In this document: piece by piece, positions 2,892 to 61,258 of the stretch
Numbering within the stretch: the stretch's first letter is position 1
Layout of the letters: each line of letters opens with the position of its first letter
NCBI GenBank assembly: GCA_020631995.1
Contig: JACKGJ010000001.1
Span: 225,753 to 289,752 of the forward strand
From: Candidatus Nomurabacteria bacterium
GTDB taxonomy: Bacteria > Patescibacteriota > Minisyncoccia > Phycocordibacterales > UBA918
Direction: 5' to 3'
Length of the DNA stretch: 64,000 nucleotides
Translations under genes and position numbers: made by a program
Notes under the pieces: generated by a model
Told to the model about the DNA's origin: nothing
Databases searched by the model: none
Seen by the model: the letters and a program-made list of their open reading frames with translations, nothing else

Positions 2892-3176
2892 TTATGAATC
2901 TTCTTCAATTTCTTCAGCAACTATACCTATCCAGCCATTTGGACCAACTACTGCCGAATGTTCGGCGCCAATCGGAACATCAAAACGTTCTCCGACTTTA
3001 ACTATTTTCTTCTCACCAGAAAAATCAAACTCAATTTCTCCGTCTGTAATAAACAGTGACACTTTACCCTTGTGCGAGTGAGGTTTATAAACTGTATCGG
3101 CAGGGTCCGACCATTCATAGACAGAAGCAAAGCCCTCTTCTTCAAAAGTCTTTATCCATCTTTCCGATAGTTCCAT
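2892..3176 (-). CDS. Cupin-fold small protein
   Basis: YKPHSHKGKVSLFITDGEIEF...GERFDVPIGAEHSAVVG shows the cupin two-motif pattern. ATG at 3176 (MELSERW) is preferred because the track GTG start (3182) would overlap the tRNA-Arg 3' end. Confidence 0.65.
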   Translation of the reverse strand: MELSERWIKTFEEEGFASVYEWSDPADTVYKPHSHKGKVSLFITDGEIEFDFSGEKKIVKVGERFDVPIGAEHSAVVGPNGWIGIVAEEIEEDS

Positions 3177-3177
3177 G

Positions 3178-3250
3178 TGCACCCGGAGGGACTCGAACCC
3201 CCAACCCCTTGTTCCGAAGACAAGTACTCTATCCGTTGAGCTACGGGTGC
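3178..3250 (-). tRNA. tRNA-Arg (anticodon UCG)
   Basis: Cloverleaf of 73 nt. Acceptor GCACCCG/CGGGTGC, anticodon stem CTTGT/ACAAG, loop CTTCGGA, T arm GGGGG-TTCGAGT-CCCTC. No encoded CCA. Confidence 0.9.
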
Positions 3251-3269
3251 AAGCGAGGCCAGTCTACTA

Positions 3270-3944
3270 TCATTTTAGGTGATGTTCAACAAGCATATTT
3301 TGCCAAAAGCGCATTTTGCAAAGCAGGTTCTTACTTCTCCTCACTTCAATCTTAATGCATCCCATATAAGCTGGTCTCTTTTTGACACCAAGTCCTGTCG
3401 GCTTGTAAATCGTTTTAACAAATCGTGAGGAAGTAACCTGCAACTTTTCCGCCCACCAGCCTTCACAATTTTCGTGAGCGTAAGGTTTATGGATATAAAG
3501 TCTAAAAAAGATATCCTCAGGGCCTATTAGTGCATATTCGTGTAACCACTGAAGCATCACTAGTATCATATCTTCGTCAGAATTTGAAAAACTCCATTGA
3601 TTTACTCTCTTAGCGCCCTCTGCCCAATACAAAGCCAAACCAACTTGAAATAAAGTATCATCCTTATATTTTTGGAATATCTGGCGAGCTTCTTGTAGCC
3701 AAAGAGCCTCTCTTTCCAACCTCCTTTTACGCAACTCAGAAGCTGCCTTAATACGACCACGAGTTATATTAGTATTTTTGCGGTCTTTTAGTACAAGCTT
3801 TTCACTTTTTGTAAGGGGAAGTTCGGCCAACCACAATGAAAGAGAACTTTTTGCCACAGGCACTTCGGCAAGGATTTCTTTATAGCTATATCCTTTTTTC
3901 CGCAAATATATAGCCCTTTCTTTTTCTTGAACCAAAGCTTTCAT
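3270..3944 (-). CDS. HTH + single LAGLIDADG-like motif protein, 19 nt upstream of tRNA-Arg
   Basis: RKKGYSYKEILAEVPVAKSSLSLWL (HTH-like) and LFQVGLALYWAEGAK (dodecapeptide-like). The domain order and length match 2124-2792. Confidence 0.6.
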   Translation of the reverse strand: MKALVQEKERAIYLRKKGYSYKEILAEVPVAKSSLSLWLAELPLTKSEKLVLKDRKNTNITRGRIKAASELRKRRLEREALWLQEARQIFQKYKDDTLFQVGLALYWAEGAKRVNQWSFSNSDEDMILVMLQWLHEYALIGPEDIFFRLYIHKPYAHENCEGWWAEKLQVTSSRFVKTIYKPTGLGVKKRPAYMGCIKIEVRRSKNLLCKMRFWQNMLVEHHLK

Positions 3945-5705: not shown

Positions 5706-6166
5706 TTGTTATGTGTCTCGCGACACATATGTGTTCTAGGTTTGGGTCTCTATATTTTCGAGGCAATGTGCCTCAAGTGGAACCCACTTATAGTCGAACG
5801 ACATGGGGTGATCCTTTTTGACCGAGACTCCATACGTTGTGCTCGTCTGTACCTATTGGACAGTGAGAATCCTATAGTAGGACCCCCAGTAGAACTCACG
5901 TAGTTTTTGTTTTGCGCCAGATGCGCAAGTCGGAAGGGTATCTAAAAGTTATGTCCTTTAGACTCTCCTTCTTTGCGACTCATGCTCCTGACAATGAGTT
6001 CTTATTGAGTATGGCTACATACTCTAGTGTGGTGTTATGAACGTTGTTAGATTATTTGGAGGTATTCTAACTTTGTGGAACGAACTCTTTAGGGGTCGCT
6101 CCGGAATCTTGAATAGAAGTTTTTCCGTACAAGATTCCGTAGCGACCGCCCGCCCTTTCTGGACCT
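5706..6166 (-). ncRNA. Candidate structured non-coding transcript(s), family unknown
   Basis: There is no credible ORF on either strand. The minus strand has a sigma70-like promoter (TTTACA 6201-6196, 17-nt spacer, TACACT 6178-6173). There are at least 8 local hairpins, for example GGTCGCT..CGGAATCTTG/CAAGATTCCG..AGCGACC, GAGTATG/CATACTC, TTGCGC/GCGCAA and TATGTGTC/GACACATA. The region ends at the 5644-5705 terminator. Confidence 0.35.
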
Positions 6167-52018: not shown

Positions 52019-52357
52019 CTAAAGTGGGTCCTCGTCATCAAAGGAGTCATAATCTACGTCCTCTGCATCTTCCTCTAAGGTCTCACTGTCTTCGGCGTCT
52101 TCATCCTTTTTTTCCTCCTCTTCCTCCTCCGGGTCGTCTTCTTTTATGTGTCCAAAACCTTCCGGTTCTTCCGGGGTTGCGACTTCCTCGCTAATTTCGT
52201 CAAGCATTGAGTCATCGATGCCGGATTCGGTATCCTCAACTTCCTCCTCGACATCATCGTCATTATTTTTAGTATGCAAAAAGTTCATATAAGGTTGGGG
52301 GTTGGTAATTAATTCACTACTGAAAAAAGATTTTAGCGCATTAACGATGATGCGCAA
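52019..52357 (-). CDS. Highly acidic hypothetical protein
   Basis: The ORF has long Asp/Glu tracts (DDPEEEEEEKKDEDAEDSETLEEDAEDVDYDSFDDEDPL). The start is uncertain (52357 or ATG at 52288). Confidence 0.4.
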   Translation of the reverse strand: MRIIVNALKSFFSSELITNPQPYMNFLHTKNNDDDVEEEVEDTESGIDDSMLDEISEEVATPEEPEGFGHIKEDDPEEEEEEKKDEDAEDSETLEEDAEDVDYDSFDDEDPL

Positions 52358-52496
52358 CCCCTACAGCAGACTTCCTTCGGTTTGGCATACAGATTTTCGT
52401 AAAGAGCAAGATAGCTGGCGTCTTTTGAGTAATTTACGCTATGTCGTTTCACCTTGGCCAAACTTAAGGACAGGAAGTTTGGTGTTGTGGCGGGGG

Positions 52497-52967
52497 CTAC
52501 CTGTGGTGAGCTAGTGCTGTTACAGCAACGGCAATCGCATCGTACTCGTCGTCAAGGGCAGTCTCGGGTAAGTCGGGCACTAAACGCATTAACATATTCA
52601 TTACGGCGCGTTTGTCACTCATTCCGTACCCTGTAACGGCAACCTTTATCTCCTGTGGACCAAATTCCCGCACTTCTGCCTTATGCTTCCGGGCTAAATA
52701 GATAACCACACCACGGGCTTCAGCAACAGCCACTGCCGTTTTTAAATTTTTGTTAAAGAACAGAGTTTCAATTGCTACTAAGTCAGGTTTATATTTTTTA
52801 ATCAACACCTCTAAGGCAGACCCTAGTTCACCAATACGTTCAGGAAGTGTATCCTTTTTGTCGGTCAAAACACACTCTGAATGGATTAGGTGTTCTTTTC
52901 CACTAACTTTCTCCATCACCGCCACTCCAAGGCGATCATATCCAGGATCTACTGCCAAGACTCTCAT
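52497..52967 (-). CDS. ruvC: Crossover junction endodeoxyribonuclease RuvC
   Basis: MRVLAVDPGYDRLGVAV...VAIETLFFNKN...DEYDAIAVA. ATG at 52967. Confidence 0.9.
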   Translation of the reverse strand: MRVLAVDPGYDRLGVAVMEKVSGKEHLIHSECVLTDKKDTLPERIGELGSALEVLIKKYKPDLVAIETLFFNKNLKTAVAVAEARGVVIYLARKHKAEVREFGPQEIKVAVTGYGMSDKRAVMNMLMRLVPDLPETALDDEYDAIAVAVTALAHHR

Positions 52968-52971
52968 ATTG

Positions 52972-53520
52972 TTATTCACCCGACTCAGGGCTATCTGCTG
53001 TTGTGTATACATCCTGTACATCGTCTTGTTCCTCAAGTTGTTCTATGAGTTCTCCCAGGCGCTCGCCGTCTGTGTCATTTAGTTCCAGTGGGGTGTTCGG
53101 CACGTATCCATCAGCTGTTTTAGTAAAAGCCCAAGCTGCTGTTCCTGGTACTCCGAGCTGGAAGCCAGATTTAGTGAAAATGCTTCGTACTTCTTGAGAG
53201 GTACGGTTATTGTTGTCAGTGACGGCGGTAATCATAAGTGCTACTCCACCTGGACCAAAGGCCTCGAACAATACTTCCTCAAAAGCGGCACCTCCAGCAC
53301 CCGCACCTTTGGCCACTGCTCTATCAATGTTTTCCTTTGGCATTGATTCTTTCTTAGCTCGTACAATAGCTGCGGCAAGTCCGGGCGAACTTATGTCTCC
53401 ATTTGCCTTACGTGATTCCATAGCAATTAGAGCAGAGTGCTTGGAAAACACTTTGCTCTTTACGGCGTCAGTCGCCGCTTTCTTATGTTTAATCTTTGAC
53501 CATTTATTGTGTCCGCTCAT
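52972..53520 (-). CDS. yebC: YebC/PmpR-family protein, short (182 aa) form
   Basis: MSGHNKWSKIKHKKAATDAVKSKVF...EAFGPGGVALMITAVTDNNNRT...DDVQDVY. It is about 60 aa shorter than the ~240-aa forms I know. Confidence 0.8.
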   Translation of the reverse strand: MSGHNKWSKIKHKKAATDAVKSKVFSKHSALIAMESRKANGDISSPGLAAAIVRAKKESMPKENIDRAVAKGAGAGGAAFEEVLFEAFGPGGVALMITAVTDNNNRTSQEVRSIFTKSGFQLGVPGTAAWAFTKTADGYVPNTPLELNDTDGERLGELIEQLEEQDDVQDVYTTADSPESGE

Positions 53521-53541: not shown

Positions 53542-54525
53542 TTAATTTTCTAAATGAGATATTGCCGAGGCGCTGGCAATACGACCACGCGGTGTGCGCT
53601 CTAGAAGCCCTAGCCGAATGAGATATGGTTCGATAACGTCTTCGATAGTGGACGCTTCCTCGCCAGTGGCTGCTGCTATGGTGCCCAGTCCCACCGGACC
53701 ACCACCAAACTTAGTAATGATGGCACTAAGTACCGCTCGGTCAGGTTTACCTAGTCCTAGTTCATCGACTTCAAGTAGGGAGAAGGTGCGGTCAACAATA
53801 TCTCTAGATATTGGTGCACCATCTAGCTGGGCCAAATCGCGACATCTCTTCAAAAGATAGTTAGCGGTGCGTGGAGTGGCTCGACAACGGGCTGCGATGC
53901 TATCAATAACTGATGCATCAGTTGGTACGCCGAGTAGATTGGCGGAGCGGGTAAGAATTTGTCCGATCTCTTCTTCAGAATAAAAATCAAGTCGAAAGGT
54001 TCCACCAGAAAAGCGAGAACGAAGTGGGGAAGAGAGAAGTGATATGCGAGTAGTGGCGGCCACTAGTGTAAACGGCGGTAGTTCTAATTGAACAGTACGG
54101 GCTGAGGGCCCTTTGCCAATAATGATATCAAGTACTCCGGATTCCATTGCAGGATATAGCACCTCTTCAATGGATTTTGAGAGGCGATGAATCTCATCAA
54201 TAAATAATACGTCTCCAGGAGAGAGGTTCGTGAGGATAGCTGCTAGGTCTCCAACACGCTCGATAGCGGGGCCAGAGGTTATGCGCATATTGGTACCCAG
54301 GGTCTTGGATATCAAGTACGCTAAAGTAGTCTTGCCGAGTCCAGGTGGACCATAAAGCAGGATATGTTCAGCGCTGTGTCCACGCTCACGAGCAGCAGTG
54401 AGCAAGATGCGTAGGTTTTCTTTAATCTTAGCTTGGCCAATGTACTCTTCCCAGGTACCCGGGCGTAGAGTTTGGTCTAGGTTTCCCGCATTGTCTTTAG
54501 TAAAAGTGTTAGTGTCTTTGGTCAT
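53542..54525 (-). CDS. ruvB: Holliday junction helicase RuvB
   Basis: [32 protein letters not shown] and the [11 protein letters not shown] arginine-finger region. Confidence 0.95.
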
Positions 54526-54576
54526 ACGGACATTATACCGAAATAGTGCCGGTTTGACCCGTGGAGTATGAAACGC

Positions 54577-54604
54577 TTGACAAATTTCTCAAATGTGCTA
54601 AGAT
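54577..54604 (+). promoter_or_regulatory. Near-consensus sigma70 promoter (extended -10)
   Basis: TTGACA (54577-82), 16-nt spacer ending in TGc, TAAGAT (54599-54604). Confidence 0.6.
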
Positions 54605-54610
54605 ATGAGT

Positions 54611-54903
54611 GTTCTTGATAGTTAGTAAAGAAAAAGCGCCACAACGTTAGTTGCTGGGGGCTATTTTTTTCTGTTCAAAATGGAGCTATCTCATTCGAGA
54701 TGACAGCTCTCTAAGCAATTGGGTGGTGTGGCGAGGACCTTCTGGTCCTTACCTTGAGTGAGAACGCTGGGAAAATCCTTAGCGCATCACTCACTTTCAT
54801 ACTAGAAAGCTTGCTTAGAGAACTTTCCTCTCGAAATATCTCCATCTATATCTATCTCTGCAAGAACCTTCAAACCGACTATAACATAGTCGGTTTTGTT
54901 GTT
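54611..54903 (+). ncRNA. Candidate ~290-nt rod-like structured RNA (family unknown; 6S-like architecture possible)
   Basis: It runs from promoter to terminator with no plausible ORF. Nested long-range pairings are GTTCTTG (54623-29)/CAAGAAC (54861-67), ATGGAG/CTCCAT, TCGAGA/TCTCGA, and AGCTCTCTAAGCAA (54705-18)/TTGCTTAGAGAACT (54811-24). Apical hairpins are AGGACC-ttct-GGTCCT and GAGTGA..CGCT/AGCG..TCACTC. The terminator is AAACCGACTAT-aac-ATAGTCGGTTT plus TGTTGTT. Confidence 0.5.
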
Positions 54904-54953
54904 AATCTTGCGGAGACTAATCTGACGTGTCGTGGAATCATTTAGAGCTATTT

Positions 54954-56633
54954 TTAGGACAGAGGACGTAGCTGTGTAATATCGACAACACGCTCAAGCT
55001 CTGCAAGTGATGTGACTCCTTCTAATACTTTCTCCATACCGTCTTCAACCATTGTGGGAATACCTTGGCTTTTAGCGGCAGCTAACACAACATGGTCACG
55101 TGGGTCGCTAATGACAACTTCTTCAACTGCCTCATCTATTCTAATCGCCTCAAATACCCCTTGTCGTCCTTTGAAACCAGTATTAGCACATTCTTTACAC
55201 CCAGGCGCATCGTAGATTGTTACTTCGTCGGTTATGACTGGTGGAGCGGGGTGTCCACGAAGTACTTTAGTAATTTTTTCTTTTTCTTCAGGAGTTGCTG
55301 GACGAGCTTTTTTGCAGACGTCACACAGCTTTCTGACCAAACGTTGTCCGAGTATGATATTGGTACTACTTCCTATGAGTCGAGCATCAACTCCTAGGTC
55401 GATAAGCCTAGCAAAACTCCCAGCTGCGCTATTAGTGTGCAGGGTAGAGAATACCAAGTGACCAGTTTCGGCAGCGTGTACTGCTGTTTCAGCCACATCA
55501 CGATCACGGATTTCACCCACCATAATGATGTCAGGATCTTGGCGAAGAATAGAGCGTAGACCGGAGGCAAAAGTGTAGTCTTCTTCTACTTGTGTCTGAA
55601 CGATTCCTTCTACCTTATATTCAACCGGATCTTCAATGGTAATTATTTTTACCTCTGGATTATGTACGGCGCGCAAAAAGGCATAAAGAGCAGTAGTCTT
55701 TCCACTTCCTGTCGGACCAGTAGTGATAATCATTCCGTTTGGACGTTTTAATTCTTCCAACATCACACGGTGCATAATGGCATTGAGACCTAGTTGCTCC
55801 ATACTAAAACTAGCGACGGTTGGGTCTAAGAGACGCATCACGGCGCTCTCGCCGGCCGAACCAGGAATAACAGAGGTACGTACCTCCACACTGCGCTGGC
55901 TGTTGTTAAAAGTGAAGCGACCGTCTTGCGCTTCGTTTTTTTTGTTAAGAATCAGTCCTGCTAAAAGCTTGATGCGTGATATTAGTCTTTCGTAAACACC
56001 GCGCTCTAAATCTACTATGTCGTGTAGTACACCATCGAGTCGATAACGTACGCGCACCTTAGCTGGCTCAGGTTCAATATGGATATCGGATGCGCCAAGT
56101 GACAATGCTCCGGCAAATAATGTTTCCAAAGTGGCACTGACGCGCCTAGCAGAATTGATAGTTTTTATCTCTTCGATTTTTGTCTTTACCTGCTCGGGGG
56201 ATAGTACGCTCTTGGTGAGACGTTCAATTTCTTCTGGGTCAATATCAAGCACGCCTTGCTTCACTGCAGTGGTGGTGTGCTGATCTTTGTATCTAGTCCA
56301 AGCGTGTTCGAGGCTGGCTGTAGACGCCATAAAAATGGACAGTGTCCAAGTGCTCTCTAATCTTTTTAAAAGTTCTTTAGTCTTTGGGTTGTTTGGATTA
56401 GTGATAGCGACAGAGAGTTTACGATTTTGTTTTTCAAATGCCACTGCGTCAGCTGCCCGGGCTTCCTCCTCAGGCACCAAAACCAATGCCGCTGGATTAA
56501 TGCTAATCCCATGCAGATCGACGTAGGTGTAGCCGTTTTGCTTGGCTAGGGCGCGAATCAGGCTTTCTTGTTCACCTTGGCGGAATTCCTGGTAGCGCTT
56601 ACTCTCTAGAATGTGGTCATCAAATTTTGGCAT
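54954..56633 (-). CDS. pilB: GspE/PilB-family secretion ATPase (type IV pilus assembly-type)
   Basis: GPTGSGKTT Walker A, IMVGEIRD Asp box/Walker B, TGHLVFSTLHTN His box, and tetracysteine CDVC...CKEC. Confidence 0.85.
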   Translation of the reverse strand: MPKFDDHILESKRYQEFRQGEQESLIRALAKQNGYTYVDLHGISINPAALVLVPEEEARAADAVAFEKQNRKLSVAITNPNNPKTKELLKRLESTWTLSIFMASTASLEHAWTRYKDQHTTTAVKQGVLDIDPEEIERLTKSVLSPEQVKTKIEEIKTINSARRVSATLETLFAGALSLGASDIHIEPEPAKVRVRYRLDGVLHDIVDLERGVYERLISRIKLLAGLILNKKNEAQDGRFTFNNSQRSVEVRTSVIPGSAGESAVMRLLDPTVASFSMEQLGLNAIMHRVMLEELKRPNGMIITTGPTGSGKTTALYAFLRAVHNPEVKIITIEDPVEYKVEGIVQTQVEEDYTFASGLRSILRQDPDIIMVGEIRDRDVAETAVHAAETGHLVFSTLHTNSAAGSFARLIDLGVDARLIGSSTNIILGQRLVRKLCDVCKKARPATPEEKEKITKVLRGHPAPPVITDEVTIYDAPGCKECANTGFKGRQGVFEAIRIDEAVEEVVISDPRDHVVLAAAKSQGIPTMVEDGMEKVLEGVTSLAELERVVDITQLRPLS

Positions 56634-60353: not shown

Positions 60354-60426
60354 CCGCCCATAGCTCAGCTGGTAGAGCATTCGCCTTTTAAGCGAGCGGC
60401 CGTTGGTTCGAGTCCAACTGGGCGGA
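60354..60426 (+). tRNA. tRNA-Lys (anticodon UUU), atypical C1:G72
   Basis: Cloverleaf of 73 nt. Acceptor CCGCCCA/TGGGCGG, D arm GCTC-AGCTGGTA-GAGC, anticodon stem TTCGC/GCGAG, loop CTTTTAA, T arm GTTGG-TTCGAGT-CCAAC. No encoded CCA. Confidence 0.85.
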
Positions 60427-60430
60427 CATT

Positions 60431-61258
60431 ATGAAGTCTTTCAAACAGATATGCATTGATTTGCGTCGGAAGGACCATACCCTGAACGAAATTATTGAAA
60501 TAACAGGTCGTAGCAAGACCACTGTTTATTACCATATTAAGGACATTGCCCTTAGCGAAGAGAAGCGTAAACAAATTTCAGAGAATTCAAGAAGATTGGC
60601 GATTGGGGTCGCATCTTCACGTCGAGGTATTGCATTACGTCCATTTCAACCATTTGATAAATGGACACCCGAACTCGTTTTACTAACTGCCCACATGGTT
60701 TTTGACGGCGAGATTTCAAAGACTTGTGCCTATAACAATCGAAGTTCCGCTTTGATAGGAAGGTTTGTAATGCTAATGAAACAGGTATATAGCTTCCCAC
60801 CCAAACGTTATTTAAATTCAGTGACTGGAGTTATTAAAGTTTGCTATAACAATGTAGCAATGGCAAACTTTTTCAAACTTAAATCTAATGAGTTGTTAAG
60901 TTGCATCCCTGAATTACCAACAAGTTACCAGAGAGAATTTCTGAGAGCTTTTTTTGATGACGAGGGTTGTATGGATTTTAGAACAATAAAGAATAAACGC
61001 AGTATAAGAGGCTATCAAAATGACGTGACAATTCTTCGTACAGTAGAACTTTTGCTTAAAAATTTTGATATTGACTCGAAGCTTCAGGGTCGCAATGAAG
61101 TTGTTATATCGGGTAAGGAGAATTTAATTAGATTCCGCGATGAGATCAATTTTTCTAAAGGAGTTCGCATTAACCCCAATCGTACCAACAGCTTATGGAA
61201 GAAAAATTTGGAAAAAAGGAAATTATTAGATATGGCCATAGCCTCCTTTAAGAAATGA
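60431..61258 (+). CDS. HTH + double-motif LAGLIDADG-type homing endonuclease-like protein
   Basis: The ATG lies 4 nt after the tRNA-Lys 3' end. HTH-like segment HTLNEIIEITGRSKTTVYYHIKD. Two dodecapeptide-like motifs, LLTAHMVFDGEI and FLRAFFDDEGCM. The stop overlaps the next gene's ATG (ATGA). Confidence 0.7.
   Translation: MKSFKQICIDLRRKDHTLNEIIEITGRSKTTVYYHIKDIALSEEKRKQISENSRRLAIGVASSRRGIALRPFQPFDKWTPELVLLTAHMVFDGEISKTCAYNNRSSALIGRFVMLMKQVYSFPPKRYLNSVTGVIKVCYNNVAMANFFKLKSNELLSCIPELPTSYQREFLRAFFDDEGCMDFRTIKNKRSIRGYQNDVTILRTVELLLKNFDIDSKLQGRNEVVISGKENLIRFRDEINFSKGVRINPNRTNSLWKKNLEKRKLLDMAIASFKK

Follow-up and report, generated by a model that had tools for sequence, protein, structure and literature searches.

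What is encoded in the 428-nucleotide (nt) gap that separates the ruvB start codon from the stop codon of a pilB-like gene in Candidatus Nomurabacteria? The question arises from a stretch of 64,000 nt (assembly GCA_020631995.1, contig JACKGJ010000001.1, positions 225,753 to 289,752 of the forward strand), which was analysed at its full length and is called the window here, with coordinates counted from its first letter. The initial annotation had placed in this gap a rod-like RNA gene of about 290 nt, running from promoter to terminator and recalling 6S RNA. The gap contains an RNA gene, and its core (54694-54835, plus strand) is a member of a structured RNA family specific to Patescibacteria (class Paceibacteria or 'Parcubacteria'). 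The family is new, strongly supported and widespread in Paceibacteria; it is absent from Rfam 15 (4227 families) and from the literature searched, where full-text searches gave no description of it.

Homologues upstream of ruvB

The window is a piece of a Patescibacteria (candidate phyla radiation) genome with a G+C content of 43%, and the best matches of its RuvB were metagenome-assembled genomes labelled Kaiserbacteria, Nomurabacteria, Minisyncoccia and others. Genome loci were fetched via RuvB and then searched with the intergenic sequence (nhmmer/blastn), which gave syntenic matches in L001 and L002. By motif reading, a homologous unit was recognised upstream of ruvB in 20 Patescibacteria loci (L001-L020). 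The covariance model R1, built from a 21-sequence alignment including the window, scored the window with 101.9 bits (E 2e-28), the window being in its training set, and found two divergent members on which it had not been trained (L032 and L042), both upstream of ruvB and on the opposite strand. A more divergent homologue was seen by eye in L048 (about 3000-3330, minus strand of the locus). There the sequence of the closing helix P1 is wholly different (GACUCAGAUCUGGGGGC...), with GGACGGUUUGG...AAACCUAUCC, the promoter and the ruvB/pilB context kept. Since the covariance model missed this homologue, the family is wider than the reach of R1.

A second set was collected from metagenome contigs with an exact DNA pattern that is blind to gene context. 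It comprises at least 120 loci, or at least 119 true members once L153 is excluded, which is a chance match to the pattern without the inner motifs. In the metagenome set listed, every true member with enough upstream sequence has a divergent ruvB upstream, the first aligned RuvB residue being 56-493 nt from P1. Each locus carries one copy of the RNA.

The family is defined by a P1 helix of the form CUCUAAG.../...CUUAGAG or a covarying equivalent, by the inner motifs AGG-AC...UAU-CCU and CUGG...CUGG in P3 and ACUUU/AAAG in P4, and by its context, a promoter TTGACA-17-TGnTAnnnT with ruvB divergent upstream. In the window, P1, the P3 motifs, P4, the promoter and the divergent ruvB are all present.

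Covariation

The same structural plan was found in four independent sequence clusters. The consensus of the 21-sequence alignment has 36 pairs, 28 of them with compensatory changes. When 98 sequences were aligned to the model, an alignment that is itself fitted to that model, 93.5% of the cells pair versus 35-56% with the partners slid by 1-3 columns. In these 98 sequences 29 of the 36 pairs show changes on both sides, and 394 double-change cells were counted versus 94 ± 14 in column shuffles (0/500 reached the observed value). The conservation and covariation in relatives to which the initial annotation had pointed as a check are thus found. MAFFT-only alignments made cluster by cluster gave the same helices, with 87-100% canonical pairing. 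RNAalifold on a MAFFT alignment of 140 sequences recovered P1 only, because the inner helices are out of register there, and cluster-wise and model-based alignments are required for them.

Helix by helix, 19 of the 21 pairs of P1 are changed on both sides among the 98 sequences, and 95.6% of its cells pair. The AGG/CCU pairs of P3 are invariant in 95-98 of the 98, the inner helix of P3 shows compensatory change in five of its seven pairs, and the outer part of this arm (P3a) covaries among the window, L137, L196 and L001. In P4, compensatory changes occur in all five pairs and 88% of the cells pair.

Strand and coding potential

The predicted fold of 54607-54903 (plus strand, 297 nt) has an energy of -111.3 kcal/mol versus -71.8 ± 4.8 kcal/mol for dinucleotide shuffles (z = -8.2, 0/200), and the long irregular rod described from the single sequence is borne out by this value together with the covariation. 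The reverse strand folds equally well (z = -9.4), so the strand cannot be chosen by energy alone. The functional molecule could then be a minus-strand one, either a pilB-ruvB intergenic element or 5' untranslated region (UTR), pilB and ruvB being co-oriented, or an antisense RNA starting from a promoter-like site at 54905-54878, for which the leader hairpin of the RNA gene would also offer a minus-strand terminator. Against this stands the asymmetry of the wobble pairs. In the predicted helices, read on the strand opposite ruvB, 668 G.U pairs were counted versus 33 A.C; on the ruvB strand those 668 would be A.C mismatches, which places the RNA on the plus strand of the window. A pair in the middle of P1 is evenly split, with G-C in 69 sequences and G.U in 69. 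R1 matches scored 64-133 bits on the forward strand versus 22-46 bits on the reverse. Furthermore, the conserved promoter is on the plus strand in 137 of the 138 homologues examined, and in the clade of the window ruvB has a probable -10 element of its own six nt before its ATG. The minus-strand RNA was ruled out as a candidate by the G.U/A.C asymmetry, and altogether we consider it very improbable.

Two open reading frames (ORFs) exist in the interval, one of 63 amino acids (aa) starting at TTG (54754-54945) and one of 44 aa on the minus strand, and the sequence is a long imperfect palindrome, as a miniature inverted-repeat transposable element (MITE) or a repetitive extragenic palindromic (REP) sequence would be. 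Neither ORF has a Pfam match. In L196 and L137 their matches are split over frames and interrupted by stops, so that the 63-aa ORF, whose conservation would have spoken against an RNA gene, is not conserved in the closest relatives. The helix tips differ in length among members, as does the optional helix P2, which several of them lack altogether. As for a repeat or mobile element, the RNA region is single copy within the window, it occupies a fixed syntenic site, and the viral contigs gave no match to the RNA family. A small protein gene or a repeat is thus hardly credible here, and the analysis supports a non-coding RNA gene.

Architecture of the family

The core measures 120-175 nt across the family. 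P1 is a long closing helix of 18-23 base pairs (bp), whose inner part (UCUCUAAGCAAU / AUUGCUUAGAGA) keeps its sequence in most members; in the distant L008, L012, L019, L020, L032, L042 and L048, covarying sequences take its place. P2 is an optional short hairpin, present in most relatives and absent in the window, L001, L002, L137, L196, L012 and L018. P3 consists, in this order, of the A-U/G.U-rich P3a, the AGG/CCU pairs, a 2x3 internal loop in which AC faces UAU (AAU in the window), a helix rich in G.U pairs that carries the conserved CUGG...CUGG, and a tip that varies and is often UUCG-capped. P4 is a short hairpin of the form ACUUU.../...AAAG. The junction of P1-P4 is four-way in most members and three-way in the window, and we propose that P1 stacks on P3. 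A pseudoknot between J2/3 and the P4 loop was seen by eye in L004 and L006 and rejected, as it is not kept in sister sequences.

A promoter of the same architecture precedes the RNA in 23 of 23 genome loci and in 114 of the 115 listed metagenome loci with enough flank. Within these 115, TTGACA was found in 108, a 17-nt spacer in 104 and the TGn element in 109. The distance from the end of the promoter to P1 is 13-231 nt in the homologues. At the other end, a T-run directly follows the 3' arm of P1 in 63 of 108 relatives, so P1 doubles as a terminator stem there; a separate terminator hairpin like that of the window occurs in 17 of the 108.

The RNA gene in the window

The promoter of the window (54577-54604, plus strand) consists of a -35 hexamer TTGACA (54577-54582), a 16-nt spacer ending in TGC and a -10 hexamer TAAGAT (54599-54604); the near-consensus promoter noted at first is therefore confirmed, with 10 of 12 consensus positions plus the TG of an extended -10. 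Transcription would start near 54610-54612. The terminator (54872-54903, plus strand), equally clean on re-examination, is formed by a stem-loop at 54872-54896 with an 11-bp stem and a 3-nt loop, followed by a T-rich tail (TTTTGTTGTT / UUUUGUUGUU). From these signals, a plus-strand transcript from about 54611 to about 54900 is predicted, roughly 290 nt long. The proposal of an independent promoter-to-terminator gene is supported, and both neighbours are on the minus strand as had been described.

The four long-range helices listed in the initial annotation are present. The outer rod pairs GTTCTTG (54611-54617) with CAAGAAC (54861-54867); its 5' strand, GTTCTTG.ATA, covers 54611-54626 and its partner is the 3' trailer at 54858-54867. 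Two helices extend the closing helix, ATGGAG (54680-54685) with CTCCAT (54840-54845) and TCGAGA (54695-54700, in the segment 54694-54700) with TCTCGA (54829-54834). The fourth is the 14-nt core of P1, AGCTCTCTAAGCAA (54705-54718) with TTGCTTAGAGAACT (54811-54824), which contains a single C.A mismatch. The 5' strand of the extended closing helix thus covers 54680-54718, including the CUCUAAGCAA block of the P1 core, and P1 extends outward to 54680/54845; on the 3' side, P1 (54811-54824), the extended closing helix (54826-54845) and the outer rod (54858-54867) together occupy 54811-54867.

Inside P1, the long irregular arm P3 (54720-54793, plus strand) begins with P3a (54720-30/54783-93), continues with the invariant pairs AGG 54734-36 / CCU 54777-79 and the internal loop AC/(A)AU, and ends with the inner G.U-rich helix (54740-46/54766-72, with the conserved CUGG...CUGG) and the variable tip (54748-62). 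P4 (54794-54809, plus strand) is a small side hairpin at the junction with 5 bp, CUUUC / GAAAG. The junction is compact, with 2+1+1 unpaired nt. The two apical hairpins described earlier did not hold: they are an artefact of the single-sequence minimum free energy (MFE) fold, and the consensus has the P3 arm and the P4 side hairpin in their place. Imposing the family-consensus fold on the window gives -105.6 versus -108.6 for the MFE, a cost of 3 kcal/mol, and in the relatives L137, L196 and L001 the family fold is the unconstrained MFE.

Between the outer rod and the closing helix lies a leader hairpin (54627-54673, plus strand) with an A-run, a G+C-rich stem (54635-54662) and seven T (54664-70). 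With these A-run and T flanks it resembles a terminator on either strand. Covariation of its stem was observed in L137 and L196, and plus-strand terminator-like hairpins were found in 14 of 88 long leaders of relatives versus 1.6 expected. An equivalent of the leader/trailer pairing of the outer rod is present in L137 and L001 and absent in L196; judging from these sequences, it is a clade-specific trait and no feature of the family. The promoter-like site on the minus strand (54905-54878, TTAACA-16-TGT-TATAGT, 10 of 12 positions plus TG) lies inside the RNA terminator, and the four closest relatives (L137, L196, L001 and L002) retain ACTATAnCA, the minus-strand reading of which is TGnTATAGT, despite differing flanks and stems.

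Regarding the neighbourhood, ruvB occupies 53542-54525 (minus strand, start ATG 54525-54523) and the gene for a PilB-like T2SSE ATPase occupies 54954-56633 (minus strand), convergent to the RNA gene. Downstream of ruvB on the minus strand, yebC and then ruvC follow (52019-53520), with no ruvA preceding ruvB, unlike in most bacteria; a 112-aa ORF in this region (52019-52357, minus strand) gave no Pfam matches. Farther away, an ORF that encodes a LAGLIDADG homing-endonuclease domain (60431-61258) lies immediately behind a tRNA gene (60354-60426).

Link to ruvB

In more than 120 loci ruvB is the neighbour without exception. A convergent pilB-like gene is usual on the other side, but several loci lack it. 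The downstream gene of the relatives is convergent in 67 loci versus a same-strand ORF in 12, some of them doubtful. A riboswitch or cis-acting leader was rejected as a candidate, as the next gene in the window, pilB, is convergent and most relatives also have a convergent downstream gene; P1 is a stable 18-23-bp helix with conserved sequence, unlike a switchable P1. A leader anti-terminator copying the 3' arm of P1 was seen in L014, yet in only 5 of 108 leaders, and was not retained either.

The two genes are interlocked at the level of their signals. TTGACAT was found in 90 listed loci, and in most relatives (L081-L200, e.g., L088 at about 5990-6035; also L006 and L004) the RuvB ATG is the CAT of this TTGACAT, overlapping the -35 on the opposite strand. 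In about 70 of 106 loci this CAT is the first in-frame RuvB ATG (MS...), with a stop 15 nt upstream, and the LRP...YIGQ motif of RuvB is in phase with the -35 hexamer in 84 of the 106, where one third would be expected. Moreover, 57 of the 92 loci with a long RNA leader have within that leader a perfect or near-perfect extended -10 directed towards ruvB, versus about 16 expected with the loose pattern used. On the ruvB strand of L081-L200, 21-136 nt before P1, this element reads TGCTATAAT in 45 cases and TGTTATAAT in five. It is the probable ruvB promoter facing the RNA promoter. In most relatives the RNA promoter and this putative ruvB promoter would thus face each other across about 60-130 bp, and the leader of the RNA would be complementary to the 5' UTR of ruvB. 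The fixed linkage to ruvB is therefore partly physical, since the start and promoter signals of ruvB interlock with the promoter and leader of the RNA. In leaders of the largest cluster (e.g., L097, L098, L120), the stretch from the ruvB-directed -10 to the RuvB ATG contains three direct repeats TATCAACA with 11-12-nt spacing and a palindrome ATAGCTAT, an array that looks like an operator for a regulator.

The arrangement of the window differs. Here 51 nt separate the RuvB ATG (54525) from the -35 hexamer, and no overlap is predicted. The ruvB start and probable promoter (54523-54560, minus strand) include a perfect TATAAT (54537-54532) six nt before the ATG, without a Shine-Dalgarno sequence, and this TATAAT/TAGAAT-N6-ATG layout is kept in L196, L137 and L001. 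It suggests a leaderless ruvB mRNA in the clade of the window, and it implies back-to-back promoters with predicted starts about 86 bp apart.

These features could be read as those of a purely cis-acting unit controlling ruvB, and perhaps pilB, by promoter occlusion, polymerase collision and 5'-5' antisense pairing, with the core as a stabilising or terminating module. The adjacency to ruvB, unbroken where that to pilB is lost, agrees with such a unit, and so do the RuvB ATG inside the -35 hexamer, the ruvB-directed extended -10 in the leader and the terminator function of P1 with its U-run in 63 of 108 loci. However, the leader, which overlaps the ruvB signals, is the least conserved part (22-231 nt, variable in sequence). 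Conservation peaks in the core, which overlaps nothing, and there it reaches down to nucleotides of the internal loop and to G.U pairs; the clade of the window keeps this core though its two units no longer overlap. Control in cis as the sole function therefore seems unlikely. A pairing of the core in trans with the ruvB 5' coding region found no support (duplex energies of -40.4 for the own target versus -39.2 across loci, p = 0.34; in a separate run on 30 loci, shuffled targets gave a similar mean of -39.1), RNAduplex with long loops being a weak test of it.

There are known systems of this kind: cis-encoded antisense RNAs and overlapping promoter pairs cause transcriptional interference, as in the face-to-face promoters of coliphage 186 and the 'excludons' of Listeria. 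Most relatives would share with them the facing promoters and a leader complementary to the ruvB 5' UTR, and they have a start codon of the neighbour in the -35. Those systems are not known to carry a covarying multi-helix domain of 130-160 nt outside the overlap, and in the window the units do not overlap.

Comparison with known RNAs

The whole window was scanned with Rfam 15 at gathering thresholds, and only four tRNAs were found. At E ≤ 10 the RNA interval gave nothing meaningful, the MicF match at E 3.7 being just the terminator, so the search of Rfam that had been proposed at the outset returned no family there. Neither was there a match at the RNA in homologues, whether in 18 genome loci (scanned at gathering, eight of them at E ≤ 10 as well) or in another 10 loci from metagenomes (at gathering); these scans returned only tRNAs, one SAM riboswitch and noise. 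The riboswitch, a SAM-I element in L178 (3590-3697, 51 bits) on a related Patescibacteria contig, indicates that Rfam models work on Patescibacteria genomes.

6S RNA (SsrS; RF00013, 6S-Flavo) was the relative suggested by the initial annotation. If the family were the 6S RNA of Paceibacteria, it would mimic an open promoter, sequester the sigma-70 holoenzyme and template short product RNAs. Both are stand-alone, single-copy genes with a strong, housekeeping-like promoter, widespread in their clade, and the long irregular rod of 6S, closed by pairing of the 5' and 3' ends, resembles the fold predicted here. 6S RNA diverges strongly in sequence, and no canonical 6S was found in the sequences scanned, which cover small parts of the genomes. 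On the other hand, RF00013 and all the other Rfam models fail on the window (E ≤ 10) and on 26 homologous loci, while the ssrS gene of E. coli, the positive control in the same scan, scored 139.8 bits and showed the 16/13-nt central bubble of the 6S consensus. Conversely, the family model, run with filters off, had no match at the 6S gene when searched against E. coli ssrS. There is no covariance-model match in either direction, and in place of the two-sided bubble of 13-16 nt the family has a compact three- or four-way junction with covarying side hairpins, the strands beside it being the covarying helices P3a, P2 and P4. The only large loop in the window belongs to the outer rod, a part that L196 and most of the family lack. 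P1 and the internal loop are conserved in sequence, unlike in 6S. The 6S rod measures about 180 nt and the core of the family 120-175 nt; the extra length of the window transcript (about 290 nt) is due to the clade-specific leader/trailer pairing and the leader hairpin. The 6S proposal was not upheld by these results, and a 6S function is a distant prospect.

The signatures of the signal recognition particle (SRP) RNA, RNase P RNA and transfer-messenger RNA had been reported as missing, and the Rfam models of these three RNAs likewise had no match. What the family has in common with SRP RNA (4.5S or the long Bacillus type) is a hairpin-like rod whose internal loops close to the apex are conserved, and the 5' branch hairpin of the window is reminiscent of the SRP Alu domain. 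SRP RNA differs by its conserved GNRA apical loop and helix-8 motif; in the family the tips vary, some members having UUCG-type caps, and the helix-8 motif is lacking. A likeness of P1 and AAGGAC-GUU to the ends of E. coli 6S RNA or to the nexus of the Cas9 repeat/tracrRNA was given no weight; there is no nuclease gene in the vicinity.

The raiA, OLE, ROOL and GOLLD RNAs are orphan structured bacterial RNAs with no assigned function, all of them included in Rfam. Like the family described here, they are recognised by conservation and covariation, have their own promoter and terminator and conserved loops or junctions, and show no obvious target in cis. The present family shows no similarity to them in sequence or structure, as none of their Rfam models matched, and it differs in being smaller, far more rod-like and restricted to Patescibacteria, and in a position interlocked with one gene.

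Possible function

The reading that we favour, with a probability slightly better than even, is a composite one: a protein-binding RNA acting in trans, whose transcription is coupled to that of ruvB. The core would act as an abundant RNA in a ribonucleoprotein (RNP). Its recognition surface could be formed by the conserved inner P1, the P4 stem and the AGG-AC/UAU-CCU loop around the compact junction, the variable helix tips being mere caps. An action in trans is suggested because conservation is highest where the opposite strand encodes nothing, the variable leader, and not the core, being the part that overlaps the ruvB signals. A protein-binding surface is suggested because helix sequence, internal loop and G.U pairs are conserved while the tips vary.

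The synthesis of the RNA would in turn be reciprocally coupled to ruvB. In the relatives whose units interpenetrate, a polymerase on one unit could occlude or collide with the other, making the transcription of the two mutually antagonistic; in the back-to-back arrangement of the window, transcription of the RNA and of ruvB would be at least coupled.

Several points weigh against this composite reading. The transcript, its ends and its abundance are predicted from sequence signals, and the RNP idea is derived from the pattern of conservation only. The cis effect would differ in kind between the window, with promoters back to back, and most relatives, with promoters face to face, and this weakens the case for a single cis mechanism. 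The leader hairpin could stop most transcripts about 60 nt after the start, before the core, unless it is read through, and the site at 54905-54878, if active, could give an antisense transcript of about 230 nt ending at that hairpin. As for the sampling, fetching loci via RuvB would miss copies located elsewhere in the genomes, and the metagenome pattern covered the main sequence subfamily only.

It is also conceivable, at rather long odds, that the RNA works with the repair machinery, for example by binding or titrating RuvB (or RuvA/RuvC) or by sensing a state of DNA damage or competence, with its gene locked to ruvB, through the start codon in the -35 box, to enforce an inverse or stoichiometric expression. 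The four- or three-way junction may mimic a branched nucleic acid. We further allow a small chance for mechanisms outside the readings discussed here.

Significance

Patescibacteria, the candidate phyla radiation, form a very large branch of bacteria that is almost uncultivated; their genomes are tiny, and few regulators have been recognised in them. An RNA of about 150 nt with a strong promoter and heavy covariation, absent from Rfam and present in many of their lineages (Kaiser-, Nomura-, Zambryski-, Ryan- and Sungbacteria among them), would join the small number of non-coding RNAs known to span this group and would be an obvious candidate for a core cellular function. The gene arrangement is itself unusual. 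In most members, the start codon of ruvB within the -35 of the RNA promoter and the probable ruvB promoter within the RNA leader offer a case in which coupled and mutually exclusive transcription can be tested directly. If the RNA is bound by RNA polymerase, it would redefine the shape that a 6S-like RNA can take; if it has another partner, it would be part of a new RNP.

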